This document shows positions 1,638-27,102 of a stretch of DNA of 64,000 bases, piece after piece. Every line of letters starts with the position of its first letter. Position 1 is the stretch's first letter. The DNA lies in contig JARVGK010000005.1 in the NCBI GenBank assembly GCA_029762535.1, positions 51,631 to 115,630 on the forward strand. The letters are read 5' to 3'. The translations under genes and the position numbers were made by a program. This DNA is from Thermoplasmatota archaeon. Lineage in GTDB: Archaea; Thermoplasmatota; Penumbrarchaeia; Penumbrarchaeales; Penumbrarchaeaceae. The notes under the pieces were generated by a model. The model was not told the origin of the DNA and did not search any database. It saw only the letters and a list, made by a program, of their open reading frames with translations.

Positions 1638-3509
1638 GTGTTCTGGAGAGAAATGGGTGTTCAGACCATGAAGCCAGTCCTAAATCCGCTCAGGGCTCAG
1701 ATAGAATCGAAAATGACAGAGGAATTGGGTTTTAATAATATCTTTGATATGTTCCTTCATTCCTCAAGAAAGAATCCAGAAAAGGTCCTGGCGATGCACA
1801 AGCTAGGAAAGGGGCATTGGGGCTCACTCACATATGATGAGGTAGAAAAGGGGTCCCTCGATTGCGCCGCCGCATTCCTGAAAAACGGAATAAAGAAGGG
1901 GGACAGGGTCGCTTTCATATGCAACAACCGATACGAATGGCTCATACTTGATCTCTCGCTTCACAGGATAGGTGCGGTTAACATATCGAACTACGTCACA
2001 CCCGATCCGAAAAAACTGGTGGAGACGGAGGTCTGCTTCAACATAAACGATTCACAATGTCGAATGCTGTTCGTCGCGGAAAAATACCTGGAAAGGGTCA
2101 TGGAGATATACGATCAGGGTAAGATGCCGACTATCGAGAAGGTCGTCGTATTGACCGATTCAGCGGATCGAAAGAAGATCGGTGAACTTGATACCTTCTC
2201 TGAATTCGTTAAGGTCGGGCAGGAATCCAGAAAAATGCTCGAGGATTATAAGGAGGTCGTGAACCTAAATGATCTTGCCACGATCATATACACATCTGGT
2301 TCGACCGGGGTTCCAAAAGGAGTGATGCTTACCCATGGCAACCTCATATCAAATGCACAGAGCCTGACAACATTCATCGATCTTAAAGAGACAGATGTGG
2401 AACTCAGCTTCTTGCCTCTTGGGCATGTTTTCGAGCGTATTATCAATTATATAATCCTGAGAATATCAGGCACCATAGGTTATGCTGAATCCATTGAGAC
2501 CATAGCGGATGATGTACAGTTCGTCAAACCTACCGTTTTTCCCGCTGTACCTAGGGTCTTCGAGAAGTTCAAGGCAAAGGTAGAGGAAAATGCCAGGTCC
2601 AAAGGTGAGTTATCCTTCAAGATATACAAATGGTCAACGAAAGTAGGTAGGGATTATTCATTGGGAAAGAGGGGTTTTCCAATGAATATAAAATACATGA
2701 TGGCCAAGAAAATCGTGTTCGACAAGGTTGTTGACAAGCTCGGGGGAAATGTTAGGTTCTTCGTTTCATCGTCCGCTCCTCTAAGCGAAGATACTGCTAT
2801 GTTCTTCAAATCGATGAACCTGGAGATCCTGGAGGCTTATGGGATGACCGAGGCCGGTCCATTGATAAGCATTAACAGGAACAACAGGGCGAGGATCGGT
2901 ACCGTTGGAGAGGCCCCTCCCGAAATAGAGGTGAAGATCGCAAATGATGGGGAGATACTTGTCAGGGGGCCATCAATAATGAAAGGTTACTGGAACAGAC
3001 CTGATGCTGATAAGGAGGCTTTTCTAAACGGATGGCTCGCTACTGGCGACATAGGAGTGATGTCAAAAGATGGTTATCTTAAGATAACGGACCGTAAGAA
3101 GAATCTAATCAAGACATCAACTGGCAAATATGTACCCCCTGCTCCCATAGAGGACAAGCTGGTATCGAACCAGTATGTCAGCCAGGCAATCGTTATAGGG
3201 GAAGCCAGACCTCACTGCTCGGCAATAATCGTCCCGGATTTCAAGCGTCTCGAGGATTATGCCCAGCATAACCAACTGCATTACACATCGATTGACGATC
3301 TCATGAATAATCCATCGGTGAAGTCCTTTTACGAGGAGTTGATCAAGAACGAGACCAAGGACATGGCGGCCCATGAACAGCCAAAGAAGGTAATCCTCCA
3401 TTCAAAGGAATGGACGTGGGAATCTGGAGAGCTCACGCCAACTCAGAAGGTCAAGAGGAGTGTGATCACTAAGATGTTCAAAGACGAGATCGACAGGATC
3501 TATTCGTAA
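1638..3509 (+). CDS. fadD: Long-chain fatty acid--CoA ligase (AMP-dependent synthetase); start may be ATG 1668
   Basis: IIYTSGSTGVPKGVMLTH, YGMTE, GWLATGDIG, ITDRKKNLIKTSTGKYV, ELTPTQKVKR motifs. Confidence 0.9.
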   Translation: MFWREMGVQTMKPVLNPLRAQIESKMTEELGFNNIFDMFLHSSRKNPEKVLAMHKLGKGHWGSLTYDEVEKGSLDCAAAFLKNGIKKGDRVAFICNNRYEWLILDLSLHRIGAVNISNYVTPDPKKLVETEVCFNINDSQCRMLFVAEKYLERVMEIYDQGKMPTIEKVVVLTDSADRKKIGELDTFSEFVKVGQESRKMLEDYKEVVNLNDLATIIYTSGSTGVPKGVMLTHGNLISNAQSLTTFIDLKETDVELSFLPLGHVFERIINYIILRISGTIGYAESIETIADDVQFVKPTVFPAVPRVFEKFKAKVEENARSKGELSFKIYKWSTKVGRDYSLGKRGFPMNIKYMMAKKIVFDKVVDKLGGNVRFFVSSSAPLSEDTAMFFKSMNLEILEAYGMTEAGPLISINRNNRARIGTVGEAPPEIEVKIANDGEILVRGPSIMKGYWNRPDADKEAFLNGWLATGDIGVMSKDGYLKITDRKKNLIKTSTGKYVPPAPIEDKLVSNQYVSQAIVIGEARPHCSAIIVPDFKRLEDYAQHNQLHYTSIDDLMNNPSVKSFYEELIKNETKDMAAHEQPKKVILHSKEWTWESGELTPTQKVKRSVITKMFKDEIDRIYS

Positions 3510-4396
3510 AGGTCCATAGCTGCTTCCATTATCCTTTGAGCGGAGGTAACCATATCACCCTCTTTAAGAAAAATATTGGTGAGACCAAGTCTGGATCTCC
3601 ATTTCCTCTGTTTCCTTACCAGGTCCATATTGCTTCTTACGATAGCATCGAATAACTCATCATTTGATACTACTTTATTCATATGGCCGATAATATGGTT
3701 CACACCTATCATCTCAAGACCGGGAAAGTCTCGTGTGTAGCCCGAGTCGATGATCGATCCGACCTCTGATAGCCATCCCTTTTCGAGCATTGTCATCGTG
3801 CGTTCGCCTATCCTTGCCTTGAGCTCTCGGTCCGATCGGTCTATGAAGAACCCTTTCCAGTTCACTCCCATGGTACTGATCCCCTTTATGGTATCTTGCA
3901 AAGGCCCCAAAGACGTGATGAGCGCCCTCGAGAGCCTTCTGAGATCATTAGGATGTGTCATGAAAGCCTTTGCAGGGTCCAATTCAAACAATAGATCGTG
4001 TGCATCATGAGGACCCAGATCCTTGATGATCTCCCTAATATCATTGGCAATACAAGGGTCGTGGGATGGACCATTCAGTCCCTTTATCAGCCTCTCCATA
4101 TAGAGCATGCTCCCCCCACAGGCGAGGGGAAGCTTTCCTCTTTCTCTTATCCTCATTGATGTGGGGATCGCCATATCAAGAAATGATCGAACGGTCATTC
4201 TTTCATTTAGACCGATAAGATCGATCATGTGATAAGGTGTATCTTTATCGATAGTGAACTTACCATTACCTATCCTAACGTCCTTGTAGAAACATCCGGT
4301 ATCGACGGATATTATCTCATATGGAACCTTTCTGCAGATATGCTGTGCGATCTCTGTCTTTCCTGAACAGGTGGGTCCGGTTAAGATCAACATCAA
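3500..4396 (-). CDS. miaA: tRNA dimethylallyltransferase (MiaA/IPPT family), divergent
   Basis: GPTCSGKT P-loop, EIISVD, PYHMID, GGSMLY, HPNDLRRLSRAL, LKARIGER..ML..G..EV, RKQRKW follow the MiaA motif order over the full 298 aa. Confidence 0.85.
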   Translation of the reverse strand: MMLILTGPTCSGKTEIAQHICRKVPYEIISVDTGCFYKDVRIGNGKFTIDKDTPYHMIDLIGLNERMTVRSFLDMAIPTSMRIRERGKLPLACGGSMLYMERLIKGLNGPSHDPCIANDIREIIKDLGPHDAHDLLFELDPAKAFMTHPNDLRRLSRALITSLGPLQDTIKGISTMGVNWKGFFIDRSDRELKARIGERTMTMLEKGWLSEVGSIIDSGYTRDFPGLEMIGVNHIIGHMNKVVSNDELFDAIVRSNMDLVRKQRKWRSRLGLTNIFLKEGDMVTSAQRIMEAAMDLYE

Positions 4397-4485
4397 GACC
4401 GTTACCTGTGATCATTTAAGTAAAGTTTACCTATCTCTAAAGATCATATCACATCGATCAGGAAATATCCTCAAGGCGATCGTTA

Positions 4486-5943
4486 TCAGAAGCTTGGTCT
4501 GTAAATGACCTTGGGCTTGAGCCCTTTGAGCTCGGAGAGTAACCCTCCCTGAAGGGATGATAGGACATCGGTGTTGGGTATGTTGGACTCGATGACCGTT
4601 GTCCTGCCGTGCCTGCCAAAAGAGATTACCTTTGTTTGAATTATGCCAAGCCTGTCAAGTTCGTTCAGGAGGTTGACCACCTGTCTTCTACCCAATACAA
4701 TCAAGTCAAGCTTCGAGGCGTAGTTGGAATAGGTTTCGACCACTTCTTTTGTGGTTGTCTTGATCCTTCCGAATATCTTCAGCTGGATGATCGAATACAG
4801 GACGATCTTGCTCTGGAGTGGTAATGATTTCACGACCTGTTGAACACGGTCGGTCTCTATCTTCTTCTGGGCCATTTTGACGTACAGGTCGGTGAGTTTG
4901 GGGGAGTGGTCCCTTTCGGCAAGCTCGGCCGAGACCCTGAGTAGGTCAAGAGCTTTTCTTGCATCACCATTCTCCTGAGCAGCGATCCCAGCGCATAGCG
5001 ATACCACATTGTCCTGGATCGAACCTTGGTAGAACGCTTCCTTCGCCCTGTGTTCGAGTATGTCCTTGAGCTGTAAAGCATTGTAGGGCTCGAAGATTAT
5101 CTCTTCAGAACCCAAGGACGATCTAACTCTTGGTTCGAGATAATCCATTATCTTTAGGTTGTTTGAGATACCGATTATCGCGACCCTTGTCCTTTGAAGG
5201 TCCTCGTTGATCCTGGTGAGTGTATATAATATGTCGTCTCCTACCTTCATGATGAGCCTATCTATCTCATCAAGGATTATTATGACCAGTGATGAAGCCT
5301 CATCAAGCTTGGAGAGCATCCTTGAATGGACCTCGTCGATGGGGAGCCCGGACACAGGAAGTCTGTCCTCGTCCGAGAAAGGAAGAAGCCTGTTCGCCAC
5401 CTGGGTCATGACCCGGTAGGCGGTGTCCATTTGCTGGCAGTTGATGTAAATGGACCTGATCTGCCTGTGCAGCTGTTGGGACATTTCGGGACCGAGCACA
5501 TCATCATGATCGATTATGGAGAGTGCGGAATTGAGGCATCTGACCGATTCCGAATCTGACATCTCTTCCTGAATCTCCATGAAAGTCCTGAGATTTCTTT
5601 CCTTGATGAAGTTGGATTTTTCCTGGAGGGCCTTCATCAGGATCTTGGACACAACGGTCTTTCCGGTCCCGGTCATGCCGAATATAATGATGTTCGAGGG
5701 GGTATCGCCCCATAATGCAGGTATCAATATCCTTGCGATACTTCCGATCTCTCTCTCACGATGGGGGAGAGTATCAGGTATATAGGAATACCTGAGAACC
5801 TCGCGGTTCTTGAAGATCTTTCCCCCGAGATCGAGGATATCAAAGATATCAGTAGCTAACCCATTCAAACTTTTCACCGTTCCCCAGCTTGATCGGATGA
5901 TGCAGGACGGAGGTATATGCGGCCGGATATTCCGGAGCTTCAC
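4486..5943 (-). CDS. cdc6: Orc1/Cdc6 replication initiator (true start probably ~25 codons downstream)
   Basis: YIPDTLPHRE, Walker A GMTGTGKT, YINC, Walker B IILDEID, RVRSSL, GDARKALDLLR, C-terminal wHTH. Confidence 0.95.
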   Translation of the reverse strand: MKLRNIRPHIPPSCIIRSSWGTVKSLNGLATDIFDILDLGGKIFKNREVLRYSYIPDTLPHREREIGSIARILIPALWGDTPSNIIIFGMTGTGKTVVSKILMKALQEKSNFIKERNLRTFMEIQEEMSDSESVRCLNSALSIIDHDDVLGPEMSQQLHRQIRSIYINCQQMDTAYRVMTQVANRLLPFSDEDRLPVSGLPIDEVHSRMLSKLDEASSLVIIILDEIDRLIMKVGDDILYTLTRINEDLQRTRVAIIGISNNLKIMDYLEPRVRSSLGSEEIIFEPYNALQLKDILEHRAKEAFYQGSIQDNVVSLCAGIAAQENGDARKALDLLRVSAELAERDHSPKLTDLYVKMAQKKIETDRVQQVVKSLPLQSKIVLYSIIQLKIFGRIKTTTKEVVETYSNYASKLDLIVLGRRQVVNLLNELDRLGIIQTKVISFGRHGRTTVIESNIPNTDVLSSLQGGLLSELKGLKPKVIYRPSF

Positions 5944-6300
5944 AACCCCGTTCCACTGAAGAGAAGCTTATTATTTAGCATTTTCCGGAGGCTTCTGGAG
6001 GGGTATAAATAGAGGTGTTTTTTTTTGGGTCGAGCAACTTTCGATCCTCCCTTACGATCATGTTCACAAGACCGCCTATATGTATTTTCTATGCCTGGAT
6101 ACTTATAAGGATACTATATATGTTCCATATTGTTGGGGGACGTGGGGTGCAAAAAAATGTTTTTTACCCTTGAAAATCGTTATAGATACCGAACCGGTTG
6201 GGAAAAGCGGAGTTTAGAGCTAGAAAAGGGGGCCGATTCATGTGGACAAAATGATTATGGATGATGAGCAACTACACCTCTACTTATAAAGAGATCCTCC
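5944..6300. other. Candidate replication origin (oriC) upstream of cdc6
   Basis: Intergenic region upstream of cdc6 with an ORB-like TTCAGTGGAACGGGG (minus strand, 5946-5960), weaker G-string motifs and AT-rich tracts. Confidence 0.45.
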
Positions 6301-6304
6301 AAAG

Positions 6305-7642: not shown

Positions 7643-10600
7643 GTGATCGCCATGAAGCATCGTTTTGATAGAGAAAGGGCATATATTTTTGCTTTGATGT
7701 TCGTAGTATCCTCATCATTCATATTGATCGGGGATGATACAGTAATGGTAACGGGTGAATCGCTATCATTATATGGGCATGTGAGAGCTGATAACAATGA
7801 GATTTGGGCACTTTCAGGTGATGAGAACATAGAGGCATCGGCCGGTTTGTCATTTATCGGAGAGAGCATGACCGGACCAGGAGGAAGGCTCGGAAGTTAT
7901 CTTTGGTCTGGAGATCTGAATGGTGATGGTTATGATGACATAGCAATGTCAGCCCCCCATCTTGAAGGAGCGCTTAGCGTTAGAGAAGGGGGATTGCTCT
8001 ATATATTCTACGGATCGAAAGAGTTACAAAATGGAGTTGTGGATATAGAAACAGCCGTTCCGGATATCGTTATCAGAGGAGGGGCCGAGGATTCGAAGCT
8101 TTTGACATCGTTTGCCGTTGGAGACATCGACAACGACGGCAACTTCGATCTCGTTTTGGGTATACCTTCCCAGCCTTCATGCGGCAGACTTTACATTCTC
8201 TGGGGTGACGGCAATTGGAGCGGGGAGATCGATCTCTTCGATCCAGGCAAACTCAATCCCAACGGGGATCCTTATGGTTTCATTCGAGATGATGATCATT
8301 TGATACTGGCTGGTCACATCGCACCGGTCCCTTGGCCCGAATCGGATTATAAGATAGGCCAATCCGTTGTAGTTAGCGATCTTGACGGGGATTCGTACGA
8401 TGATGTGGTCTTCAGCGCTCCGGGATGGAACAAGGTCAATATTATGTGGGGAGGGCCGAACAGATTTCAGCTTGGAGATGAGATGACCATAATTCAAGAC
8501 GACCAGAACAGTGGCCTCTTCGGGCAGAGCGTGATCTCTCTCGATATGAATGGAAATCAAATGCCAGACCTGGCTATTAGCGGACCGCTGAGAAACCATC
8601 CGACAACACTATATCAGCAGACGGGCACTGTAATGGTGATTTTCGATGCGGGGGATCTCAGAGGAACTGTTAATATCAACGTCGAGGACACGGTAAGGCC
8701 GTTCATATATGGAAACGATCCAAATGATAATTTTGGCAGGGTGATACTGTCAAAGGACATCAACCATGACGGGCGTGATGATCTTATAGTTGGCGCACCT
8801 TACAGTGATGGACCGGACGACACGAGGTACAACTCGGGCTCCATACACATATATTTTGGAGGACAGATAAACCAATTTCCAGTGATTATGGATTCTGAAA
8901 CCGGGGCAGACGTCATAATATACGGAGCAACGAAAGAAGGGCCTACATATCCAGGTGACAGATTGGGGACAGTATTCGAATTGGGTGATATCAACTCCGA
9001 CGGTGAACACGGTTTGATTATTGGATATCCAGACGTTTCGGTCCAGGATGCCGAGAAGGCCGGAATGGTGGCCTATTATACATATCAACAAGTGTTCTCA
9101 TCCCCTCCTCGTTCGATAGATCTCAAGGATATTGATCCGACATTCAGGATATTCGGGATAGACATGCAGGATAGGCTGGGATATTCCCTTTGCATCGCTG
9201 ACATGGATGGGGACGGCGCTCATGAGTTGATCATAGGTTCTCCGGCCTCGGATGGTATTGAGAATACCAGGCCTTCCTGTGGTGAGGTCCATATTATTAG
9301 AGGGTCCAAAGTAGGAATCGACTCGCTGACATTATCCGGTATGGGGACACAGGACGGTTTTGTCCTGTGCGGTAAAGGCGATACGACGATAACCGTGGGA
9401 TATTCCCATTCGGAAGATAACGACCTATTGTTATCCATGGATGTGGAATTGCAGGATCTTGGGATAAAAATGACCATTCCTTTAGCTACTGGTGAATATC
9501 CAATAATTGATACACCCTATGAGATGATAAAACCCGTAAGCAAGGTGATCGTATCGAAAACGACCAATGGTGCACAGGCATCGGCGGTGATCGAATTCAC
9601 ATGGTCCTTTCCTTCTGGGGAATACGATGTGAAGATTATTGTATCCTCATCAAAATGGAATTATTCCAGATTGTTTTCCAAAGCCATATTATCAGAGGAT
9701 GTTCTAATATTTTTGGAGAACTATGAACTATTCAGGAACGGTCAAAGAACCGTACATGGTTCCGAATGGTTTGGACCGGATGATAGAATCGATATCAATG
9801 GACTATCGCTTTATTATGATACTGTACCTCCTATTGAGGTCATAGATGGTCCTTTCGAAATAAGCCTTTTGGTGAACGCAATATCGATCCATACTCAGGA
9901 ATATGTACCCGACATGAGTTTGAATTTTACCATCACCGACGAAGATAGTATCATACTTACCGTAAAGGCCTCTCCTATCATCGGGATATTTCCCACAGGT
10001 ATCCCATCGGAATTCATTCCTTTTATATCGGGGCAAATCGTGTTAGAGCTTCATATTGACCAAACCCCTCCCGATATCCCATCGAACCTAGTTCTCGATC
10101 CTGGAACTTTTGGACATGAGGATTACGGAACTGAAGGTGAATGGGAGATCAGATGGGATGATGGCAGGACCAACGGAGGTGATGCAGGATCAGGAATATG
10201 GGCCTATGAGGTAGGTATCAAGGAGGAGGTAAAGATAGCCATGCATCCTGGAGGTCTGCTTGGGACATACTACAACGACGATCGTTTCATCGAGGAAGGC
10301 CTATCAATCGTGGATGAACAGATCGACTTCAACTGGGGCAATTACCCGCCTAAACCCGAGATCATTCCATTGGGTTTCTCTATAAGATGGCATGGGTGGT
10401 TAATGCCGGACCAGAATATCAAGACGAGGTTCACGATATGGGGAAAAGGTGGGAACTCCCTTCTGATCTTTGACGATCAGAGGCTGTTGGAATGGAACGA
10501 TGTCGAGTTCAGAAGGAGTTCAGGCTACGTGGACCTAGTCGGCGGAGAGATCTATTATATCGAACTGTACTTTCGACAGAAAGGGGATCTTGAAAACTCT

Positions 10601-11980
10601 CTTTTTCTAAGATGGGACGACGAGAGCGGTAATTCCGTTGAGATATCATCGAGTTCCATGTATTATCCATCAAACACTTCATCAATAGATATCGAGTCCT
10701 CCATATCGGAGATCTTCAACGTTTCCGTCAAGGCGATAGATTGGGTAGGTTCGATCTCTGGCCCGGCCTTTTCTCAAGGGATCATTGATCTCGATCAACC
10801 AGTTATCGATCTTACAAGATATTCAAGTTGGTACAACTCATCAAGGGTCGAAGTACATTTTGCGCTATTCGACCCTACGATTATGGGAATGGAGGGTTCA
10901 GGAATAGATGGGGATAGCATATCATACAGATTGATGCACGAAACAGAAACGGAATATTCCCCCCCTTACAAAGAAGAGATATGGTTGAAATATGGGGATT
11001 CTCTTTCCTTTGTCGATGTGATGATGAGGCTTGAGTTGGATGGAACGTGGAAGGGATCTTTACAGATATTCGCATCGGACAGGGTAGGGAATACCGTACA
11101 ATCATCCTCACTCAGCTTAGGTGTTGACATGATCGCTCCTCAGTTCGACATGGTCCAACCTTCCACCTTCATAATCCACAATACAGCTGACCTATCTTTT
11201 GCTCTCAGGGTCGAGGATATTCAAGGTTCCGGTGTCAATGGGGAGACAATTGCATACCGAACGAGGATGAACGACACCGACTGGTCAGGTTGGATGGATA
11301 TTGGCCGTGAAACAGCATCAGAGCAGTTGATGATCGAATTCACTCACAAGTTATCAGAAGGTACGAATTTCATACAGTTCATGGCCGAGGATATTGTAGG
11401 CAATATGGGAATATCACGAGAATATGAGCTTAGGGTCAAGGTGCCGACAGTGAACAATCCTCCCACCCCCCTGATATCAAGCCCGATCAACGGAACAAGC
11501 TATTCTGAGGGGCATCCAGTAATACTGGATGCATCTGGTTCCACTGATGATGGTATCGGTTTATTTCCTGAATTGAGGTTCACATGGTCCTCGAACAGGA
11601 CTGGATTATTAGGTACCGGTAAGGTGATCTCCATTAACATCCTTACAACAGGCTGGCACAGGATCACGCTTTTCGTCGATGATGGTTCTCCAGGGAATAA
11701 CGTATCTGACCATGTTGATATATACATAAGGAGGGCTGTGAACCCCAACGGTACGGTCAACCCAGAACCAAATGCGACGGATGAGGCATATCGAACTATA
11801 CTTGTGATATCAGCTTTGGCAGTTGTGATCATCGTCATTATCGTATTCATAATCCTATTCGTAAAGAGATATGGTAATGAGAGGGGTGCCGAGATTAGAA
11901 TAGATTATAAAGAAGAAACAGATGACGATATCGATTACATGATAAAGAGCAGATATGATGAATTCGATTCAGAAGAGTGA
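7643..11980 (+). CDS. Large surface protein: FG-GAP (integrin-alpha-like) repeats, PA14 domain, Ig/PKD-like domains, C-terminal TM anchor
   Basis: Repeated GDxNGDGxDDLxxGAP motifs; GLLGTYY...DEQIDFNWG...FSIRWHG (PA14); LDASGSTDD...FTWSS...GWHRITLFVDDG (PKD-like); hydrophobic C-terminal helix with acidic tail. Confidence 0.85.
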   Translation: MIAMKHRFDRERAYIFALMFVVSSSFILIGDDTVMVTGESLSLYGHVRADNNEIWALSGDENIEASAGLSFIGESMTGPGGRLGSYLWSGDLNGDGYDDIAMSAPHLEGALSVREGGLLYIFYGSKELQNGVVDIETAVPDIVIRGGAEDSKLLTSFAVGDIDNDGNFDLVLGIPSQPSCGRLYILWGDGNWSGEIDLFDPGKLNPNGDPYGFIRDDDHLILAGHIAPVPWPESDYKIGQSVVVSDLDGDSYDDVVFSAPGWNKVNIMWGGPNRFQLGDEMTIIQDDQNSGLFGQSVISLDMNGNQMPDLAISGPLRNHPTTLYQQTGTVMVIFDAGDLRGTVNINVEDTVRPFIYGNDPNDNFGRVILSKDINHDGRDDLIVGAPYSDGPDDTRYNSGSIHIYFGGQINQFPVIMDSETGADVIIYGATKEGPTYPGDRLGTVFELGDINSDGEHGLIIGYPDVSVQDAEKAGMVAYYTYQQVFSSPPRSIDLKDIDPTFRIFGIDMQDRLGYSLCIADMDGDGAHELIIGSPASDGIENTRPSCGEVHIIRGSKVGIDSLTLSGMGTQDGFVLCGKGDTTITVGYSHSEDNDLLLSMDVELQDLGIKMTIPLATGEYPIIDTPYEMIKPVSKVIVSKTTNGAQASAVIEFTWSFPSGEYDVKIIVSSSKWNYSRLFSKAILSEDVLIFLENYELFRNGQRTVHGSEWFGPDDRIDINGLSLYYDTVPPIEVIDGPFEISLLVNAISIHTQEYVPDMSLNFTITDEDSIILTVKASPIIGIFPTGIPSEFIPFISGQIVLELHIDQTPPDIPSNLVLDPGTFGHEDYGTEGEWEIRWDDGRTNGGDAGSGIWAYEVGIKEEVKIAMHPGGLLGTYYNDDRFIEEGLSIVDEQIDFNWGNYPPKPEIIPLGFSIRWHGWLMPDQNIKTRFTIWGKGGNSLLIFDDQRLLEWNDVEFRRSSGYVDLVGGEIYYIELYFRQKGDLENSLFLRWDDESGNSVEISSSSMYYPSNTSSIDIESSISEIFNVSVKAIDWVGSISGPAFSQGIIDLDQPVIDLTRYSSWYNSSRVEVHFALFDPTIMGMEGSGIDGDSISYRLMHETETEYSPPYKEEIWLKYGDSLSFVDVMMRLELDGTWKGSLQIFASDRVGNTVQSSSLSLGVDMIAPQFDMVQPSTFIIHNTADLSFALRVEDIQGSGVNGETIAYRTRMNDTDWSGWMDIGRETASEQLMIEFTHKLSEGTNFIQFMAEDIVGNMGISREYELRVKVPTVNNPPTPLISSPINGTSYSEGHPVILDASGSTDDGIGLFPELRFTWSSNRTGLLGTGKVISINILTTGWHRITLFVDDGSPGNNVSDHVDIYIRRAVNPNGTVNPEPNATDEAYRTILVISALAVVIIVIIVFIILFVKRYGNERGAEIRIDYKEETDDDIDYMIKSRYDEFDSEE

Positions 11981-26906: not shown

Positions 26907-27030
26907 TCATATGTTATAATATTATATTAATATTGTTATAATATTTTTATAATCGCACATAATATAGACATATTCTTATAATATGTAGATAGTGAAAATA
27001 TATTAAGTTTTATAAAAATATAAAAATAGG

Positions 27031-27102
27031 TGGAGAGAGGGAGATTCGAACTCCCGTAAAGCCGATCTGCAGTCGACCGCATAGCCACTCTGCCATCTCT
27101 CC
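27031..27102 (-). tRNA. tRNA with GCA anticodon (Cys), atypical A73 discriminator
   Basis: GGAGAGA/TCTCTCC acceptor stem, anticodon arm GTCGA-CTGCAGA-TCGGC, T arm GGGAG-TTCGAAT-CTCCC, followed by ACC. Confidence 0.92.

Follow-up and report, generated by a model that had tools for sequence, protein, structure and literature searches.

In Escherichia coli, the tRNA dimethylallyltransferase MiaA modifies roughly ten UNN-reading tRNAs (PMC7200024), and a review of the mutagenesis by Soderberg and Poulter lists Lys23, Thr24, His67 and Arg217 as residues binding dimethylallyl diphosphate (DMAPP), Lys56, Arg167, Arg170 and Lys280 as tRNA-binding residues, Thr19 and Tyr47 as stabilising the transition state, and Asp42 as the general base (PMC8234997). 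In the human system, cytosolic TRIT1 is restricted to tRNA-Ser(NGA), and G37 is the main reason why other UNN-reading tRNAs stay unmodified (PMC7200024). According to the literature the product, N6-isopentenyladenosine (i6A), has not been found in archaea, and a survey of the isopentenyltransferase (IPT) gene family describes the IPPT domain as absent from Archaea (PMC6071968). Here we analysed a miaA-like gene in a 64,000-nucleotide (nt) stretch from a Thermoplasmatota archaeon (GenBank assembly GCA_029762535.1, contig JARVGK010000005.1, positions 51,631 to 115,630), hereafter called the window, for which the original prediction had left two options, i6A synthesis in an archaeon or a prenyltransferase repurposed for another donor or acceptor. 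None of the papers searched mentions MiaA together with Thermoplasmatota. Between the two proposals, the conserved residues, the insertion domain, the selection acting on the gene and the A36-A37-A38 tRNAs favoured i6A formation, and we consider it likely that the gene encodes a functional MiaA-type transferase that forms i6A37 on tRNA-Ser and that was acquired horizontally and then kept by vertical descent.

The gene lies on the reverse strand at 3500-4393 and encodes a tRNA dimethylallyltransferase homologue of 297 residues. The mechanical extent of the open reading frame (ORF) is 3500-4396, with an in-frame TTG at 4396 and an ATG at 4393 as the second codon; since the 297-residue database copy (P0004) and the N-termini of relatives begin at the latter, this ATG is the likely start. 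No stop codon interrupts the frame anywhere along its length. The predicted protein matched PF01715 (Pfam IPPT; 5.2e-41, positions 2-240 of the 243 in the profile) with a bit score of about 141.4-141.7 (cut-off 23.6), and the NCBIfam miaA equivalog TIGR00174 with 149.9 bits (cut-off 148.65). Together with the TIGR02928 match of the neighbouring cdc6, these matches confirmed the proposal of a full-length MiaA-family protein, co-oriented with cdc6 and located 3′ of it at a distance of 89 nt counted from the TTG (92 nt if the ATG is taken). When solved structures were compared by sequence, E. coli MiaA came first (2zm5/3foz, 2.3e-29, residues 3-267); other bacterial MiaAs ranked next, then yeast Mod5, with plant adenylate IPT far behind.

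In order to map individual residues, the window protein was aligned with HMMER to E. coli MiaA 2zm5 (offset +10). Nine of the 11 mutagenesis-defined residues were identical in the two proteins. The P-loop reads GPTCSGKT (pattern GPTxxGK[ST]) and places Thr9, Lys13 and Thr14 at the positions of Thr19, Lys23 and Thr24, which are invariant in 11/11 family sequences; the catalytic Asp42 (Asp32), Tyr47 (Tyr37) and the diphosphate-binding Arg217 (Arg199) are all kept, and the tRNA-binding Lys56, Arg167 and Arg170 are identical at Lys46, Arg154 and Arg157. The two exceptions are Lys280, found as Arg261, which is a conservative replacement, and His67, found as Tyr55. The original prediction had stressed four altered motifs (DTGCFY, IGNGK, IGV and LVRKQRKW). 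All four alterations are present, but they miss the mutagenesis-defined residues and most of the motifs are canonical again in the family consensus. The change from DS to DT is seen in another genus too, while the changes from IGT to IGN and from IGY to IGV (or IGN) are common to the window protein and three relatives, P0029, P0033 and P0039; on this alignment evidence they are conserved characters of a subclade, not random damage. The position of Thr54 in IGT is occupied by Ser or Ala in some bacteria also, and elsewhere the IGY motif hardly varies at its Tyr.

The AlphaFold2 model, for which an alignment of 62 sequences was the input, was very confident (predicted local distance difference test, pLDDT, 94.3; predicted template modelling score, pTM, 0.86). 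It consists of a P-loop core and a four-helix insertion domain at residues 113-161, with helices at 113-126, 128-138, 140-145 and 151-161 and a pLDDT of 85 or more per 10-residue block. The top Foldseek matches were the tRNA-bound E. coli MiaA structures 3foz_A (template modelling score, TM, 0.74) and 2zm5 (0.73-0.74), aligned over the full length; other MiaAs and Mod5 followed, and then the adenylate IPTs (3a8t, 0.62; Tzs 2ze5, 0.49). As modelled, the window protein has the swinging helical insertion domain with which MiaA clamps the anticodon stem.

By sequence as well as by structure, the best match of the window protein is therefore bacterial MiaA, with which it shares the length class (297 residues here, 316 in E. 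coli), the core and helical insertion domain, the catalytic Asp, the P-loop Thr/Lys/Thr, the Arg217 equivalent and the basic tRNA-binding residues. It differs in being only 27-28% identical to the E. coli protein, in carrying Tyr for His67 and a shorter stretch after the insertion domain, in the IGN/IGV of its subclade in place of IGT/IGY, and in its archaeal host; it has, moreover, neither a MiaB partner nor the mutL-miaA-hfq context, and the predicted substrate set is tRNA-Ser only. With Mod5/TRIT1 (3eph) the protein shares the fold (TM 0.75 normalised to the window protein), a predicted product that stops at i6A without methylthiolation and, as predicted for the archaeal enzyme, the serine-restricted profile of cytosolic TRIT1; it lacks the C-terminal zinc-finger extension, ending at 297 residues versus 409, and the sequence match to 3eph is weaker (9.6e-15, query residues 3-218 only). 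The adenylate IPTs (Tzs/IPT) share the P-loop core and the catalytic Asp/Thr/Arg chemistry (PMC8234997), but their profile PF01745 reached 19.7 on window residues 4-47 only, under its cut-off of 20, and the window protein retains the tRNA-binding residues and a MiaA-type insertion domain that set it apart. Judged from profile scores and the model, it is not a Tzs-type adenylate IPT; it belongs to the bacterial-type MiaA family and has one defining residue, His67, replaced.

Candidate substrates were sought with ARAGORN in the whole assembly (G000; 2.96 Mb, 102 contigs, 93% complete), which yielded one credible tRNA per A36 anticodon. The combination A36-A37-A38 occurs in tRNA-Ser(GGA), tRNA-Ser(CGA) and tRNA-Ser(UGA) only; all three genes lie outside the window, tRNA-Ser(UGA) at C47:81902-81990 (relatives' loci L049-L078) and the other two at C38:8004-8086 and C23:22467-22574, and tRNA-Ser(GGA) carries a canonical 37/38 intron. 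The absence of such tRNAs, which would have spoken against an i6A role, was thus not what we observed. G37 is found in the remaining A36 tRNAs, namely Phe(GAA), Leu(CAA), Leu(UAA), Trp, Tyr and Cys, so that Ser is the exception here to the earlier generalisation that archaeal UNN-reading tRNAs carry G37, which is true of Phe, Leu, Tyr, Trp and Cys. The tRNA-Cys(GCA) of the window (27029-27102, reverse strand) has G37 and is no MiaA substrate, as the original prediction had stated. A second tRNA-Phe(GAA) call (C6:71927-72158) has A37 and a 139-nt intron in the anticodon region, a normal G37 tRNA-Phe being present on C33; this second call looks like a false positive, as do several others whose introns span 300-1400 nt.

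Across the window's family, A37-A38 is present in every recovered tRNA-Ser(UGA) (18 genomes) and tRNA-Ser(CGA) (15 genomes). Among the relatives sampled from the class, 9 of 11 have G37 in tRNA-Ser(UGA), and family f2 of the same order also has G37. In a phylum-wide count of the stem-loop pattern, G37-type tRNA-Ser(UGA) was found in 120 of 401 Thermoplasmatota genomes and the A37 type in at least 189, a number that includes one unpublished genome (G400) on which the conclusion does not depend. A co-evolution of MiaA with a switch from G37 to A37 in tRNA-Ser was considered and rejected, given A37 in 189/401 genomes and MiaA in one family. At position 32 of tRNA-Ser(UGA), genus g5 (L052-L054) has U, and all family genomes that have miaA or an unassembled locus have C (among L049-L066). 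A report on eukaryotes describes i6A37 as a determinant for 3-methylcytidine at position 32 on some tRNA-Ser (PMC4986895); U32 in the miaA-less g5 against C32 elsewhere may be a coincidence.

With regard to pathway partners, a profile search of the 93% complete assembly found no MiaB, a check that the original prediction had suggested. The sole gene of the MiaB/RimO family (C33:30135-31391) fits the archaeal MtaB-type profile TIGR01578 (332 bits versus 314.7) and reaches 184.9 bits with the miaB profile TIGR01574 (cut-off 355.3). As MiaB is lacking, the predicted end product is i6A and not its 2-methylthio derivative (ms2i6A). A type 2 isopentenyl diphosphate (IPP) isomerase is encoded on the window's contig (348 bits), and we infer that DMAPP would be supplied by the mevalonate pathway together with this isomerase.

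The homologue search was exhaustive over 1.84 billion representative proteins and returned about 20 proteins below 1e-30, followed by a continuum of ordinary MiaAs. A word-indexed search gave only matches of 33% identity or less, and the archaeal clade was visible only in the exhaustive search. In an unrooted maximum-likelihood tree of 77 sequences (22 archaeal-type and 55 bacterial-type rows), the 22 archaeal-type MiaAs formed a single group, separate from the bacterial-type rows, with a Shimodaira-Hasegawa-like approximate likelihood ratio (SH-aLRT) support of 100. Genera g3 and g6 were each monophyletic, and the window protein clustered with P0029, P0033 and P0039 (SH-aLRT 98). When the flanking genes were concatenated, the resulting tree recovered the same genera and paired the window with the contig encoding P0039. 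The agreement of the MiaA tree with the flanking-gene tree indicates that miaA has been inherited vertically since the ancestor of the family.

The relatives' loci were located through cdc6, as the MiaA alignment has no stretch conserved enough for a locus search. They belong to metagenome-assembled genomes (MAGs) named Thermoplasmatota or Thermoplasmatales archaeon, some with isolate labels ex4484_6 or EX4484-6. Within the window's family (class EX4484-6), 10 other genomes keep the gene order acyl-CoA synthetase, miaA, cdc6, and it recurs on one contig of a Joint Genome Institute (JGI) metagenome, which encodes P0039 (locus L101) and represents the nearest relative of the window for which the gene surroundings are known. 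The synthetase orthologue adjoins miaA in 10/10 family loci, and relative to the window the flanking orthologues are 64-70% (cdc6) and 63-68% (synthetase) identical in the family, and 74% identical on the P0039 contig. On this contig an FG-GAP/PA14 gene and two small ORFs likewise flank cdc6, so the synteny reaches past the three-gene core. An additional 215-residue DUF8183/helix-turn-helix gene stands there between cdc6 and miaA, and the region 3′ of cdc6 seems to tolerate insertions. The same contig carries a Trm5/TYW2-type (G37) methyltransferase gene about 0.7 kb past the synthetase gene.

PF01715 matches were found in 10 of the 23 other genomes of the family and in none of 13 that belong to other families within the class. 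For Thermoplasmatota as a whole, the domain was detected in 10/401 genomes, its one occurrence outside the window's family being a match in genome G110 (locus L043, C35:4870-8586); the latter lies on a contig of 72% guanine plus cytosine (GC) and its protein groups with bacterial MiaAs, and by its composition and placement this is probably a mis-binned bacterial contig. The checks of synteny, IPPT profile and phylogeny proposed in the original prediction thus converged on one archaeal clade in one family. A patchy loss of miaA throughout the family was considered and rejected, as all five apparent absences that were checked turned out to be assembly gaps: G003, G006, G007 and G020 have no orthologue of either flanking gene, and in G011 the contig stops within the synthetase gene. 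Genus g5 has a clean junction, with 30 nt and no miaA separating cdc6 from the synthetase gene; within the family, the absence of miaA is demonstrated for this genus only. In the midpoint-rooted flanking-gene tree g5 is nested among miaA-bearing genera, suggesting that it lost the gene, a suggestion that rests on midpoint rooting and is not secure without an outgroup; no close synthetase orthologue that could serve as one was found in families f2, f4, f6 and f7.

For two unsaturated pairs of miaA genes from the relatives, the ratio of nonsynonymous to synonymous substitution rates (dN/dS) was 0.23 and 0.17; at the level of codon substitutions, miaA in the relatives is clearly under purifying selection. 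A gene unique to this genome with dN/dS near 1, named at the outset as the sign of a decaying transfer, is therefore not what we found: relatives share the gene and the ratio is about 0.2.

From these results a scenario can be proposed for the i6A37 transferase. The ancestor of one EX4484-6 family would have acquired miaA from a bacterium, the gene would have been inserted between cdc6 and the acyl-CoA synthetase gene, and vertical inheritance would have followed. If the mechanism follows that of E. coli MiaA, the anticodon stem would be clamped by the insertion domain together with basic residues, A37 would flip into the channel, Asp32 would remove the N6 proton, and the P-loop residues Thr9, Lys13 and Thr14 together with Arg199 would hold the DMAPP diphosphate. 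As tRNA-Ser(GGA), tRNA-Ser(CGA) and tRNA-Ser(UGA) are the only A36-A37-A38 tRNAs of the genome, the predicted product is i6A37 on these three UCN-reading tRNAs, which would undergo no further methylthiolation.

Several observations weigh against this scenario. The organisms are uncultured and known as MAGs. The TIGR00174 cut-off is exceeded by a marginal 1.3 bits. The DMAPP-binding His67 is Tyr55, with a His next to it at position 56, and Tyr is nearly invariant at this position in the family; in the window subclade, moreover, Thr54 is replaced by Asn and the Tyr of IGY by Val or Asn. The gene also evolves about five times faster than its flanks: in one genome pair dN was 0.175 for miaA, 0.032 for cdc6 and 0.039 for the synthetase, and the window protein is only 34% identical to P0039, against 74% for the flanks. 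Nearly all of the genomes with A37-type tRNA-Ser(UGA) lack MiaA, and genus g5 retains A37 without miaA, which implies that A37 serine tRNAs work without i6A in many Thermoplasmatota. Moreover, A36-A37-A38 is necessary but not sufficient for the modification (PMC5699536), and the serine tRNAs found here are permissive for i6A, not proof of it.

Some of these points would suit a repurposed prenyltransferase, in which the archaeal clade or the window subclade has retained prenyl transfer with an altered acceptor (free adenine nucleotides, the acceptors of cytokinin-type IPTs, or another RNA) or an altered donor. The fast divergence relative to the flanks, the marginal equivalog score and the functioning of A37 tRNA-Ser without MiaA in many relatives would agree with it, as would the replacement of His67 by Tyr across the family and also in the three nearest relatives of the window protein, the segment right after the insertion domain, which is several residues shorter than in bacterial MiaA, and the subclade-conserved replacements at Thr54 (by Asn) and Tyr251 (by Val or Asn). 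We nevertheless regard such repurposing as unlikely, because the four tRNA-binding residues of E. coli MiaA are kept (Lys56, Arg167, Arg170) or conservatively replaced (Lys280 to Arg), the clamp for the anticodon stem, the insertion domain, is modelled confidently, tRNA-bound MiaA structures outrank adenylate IPTs as structural matches and the IPT/Tzs profile PF01745 stays under its cut-off. The specific proposal that the replacement of His67 by Tyr, with the subclade changes of Thr54 to Asn and Tyr251 to Val, altered the donor or acceptor nucleotide and gave rise to an RNA or nucleotide modification undescribed in archaea appears quite unlikely.

Decay offers another account, according to which a once-functional transferred gene is drifting to loss in the window genome, as it apparently has in genus g5 with its 30-nt cdc6/synthetase junction. 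With PF01715 the window copy scores lower than any other in the family (141.7 bits versus 148-186), and it carries changes at three positions where the other 10 family genomes are invariant (Ala10 to Cys, Thr44 to Asn and Tyr232 to Val). A drifting gene is hard to reconcile, however, with a full-length frame without stops, with the intactness of all catalytic residues, with odd substitutions that P0029, P0033 and P0039 have in common and that are hence subclade-conserved, with a terminal branch (1.11) that is close to the median (0.85) and no outlier, and with the very confident AlphaFold2 model, and we hold it to be improbable. That the gene comes from a bacterial contaminant or a mis-binned contig, for which the GC content of the window's contig (C58, 47.4%, under the genome mean of 53.1%) and the foreign-looking bacterial-type MiaA in the G110 bin could be cited, is scarcely credible and, in line with the original prediction, is ruled out by the conserved synteny, with miaA on a 115.6-kb contig whose flanking orthologues recur in 10 independent MAGs from different studies and in the metagenome contig, with archaeal tRNAs and neighbours in the window, and with a protein that groups with the family's own clade and not with bacteria. 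The GC spread of the assembly is large for one genome, most large contigs having 52-57% and C25, like C58, less (48.1%); the synteny of C58 with relatives argues that it belongs to the organism.

As regards the surroundings of the gene, the spacer between cdc6 and miaA (4394-4485, reverse strand) contains an A/T-rich, TATA-like stretch, TTTACTTAAAT, at about 4424-4414 and centred about 25 nt 5′ of the miaA ATG, which may act as a promoter. A scan of the locus for bacterial-type promoters and terminators gave no signal beyond chance. The orc1/cdc6 replication initiator gene, 5′ of miaA and in the same orientation (4486-5943, reverse strand), was identified by Cdc6_lid (4.5e-24), Cdc6_C (7.4e-23) and TIGR02928 (381 bits); its true start may be near 5868, since its relatives begin at about codon 26. 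On the other side, the AMP-binding acyl-CoA synthetase gene (1638-3509, forward strand; PF00501, 7.9e-71) is convergent with miaA, and the 3′ ends of the two genes share 10 nt (3500-3509). Located 5′ of cdc6 is a 361-nt non-coding stretch (5944-6304) with a 12-nt direct repeat and with an inverted repeat whose 15-nt arms (6004-6018 and 6274-6288) are 93% complementary, features with which it could be a replication origin beside its initiator gene. Further neighbours in the window are encoded at 7643-11980 (a 1445-residue FG-GAP/PA14 repeat protein, probably exposed at the cell surface) and at 1-1317 (the iron transporter FeoB).

The weight of the finding is limited in that the acquisition is horizontal and restricted to one lineage, nothing suggests new chemistry, and the label MiaA already exists in NCBI, where the pipeline names the G001 protein MCK5772364.1 'MiaA [Thermoplasmata archaeon]'. 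Still, a whole archaeal family has retained a MiaA-type gene under selection, together with matching A36-A37-A38 serine tRNAs, a finding that contradicts a textbook generalisation. If the enzyme is active, archaea would join the domains that bear i6A, and a position-37 enzyme would have become established in a translation apparatus not its own, where the other UNN-reading tRNAs have G37 and serine tRNAs are its sole targets, as in the human cytosol.

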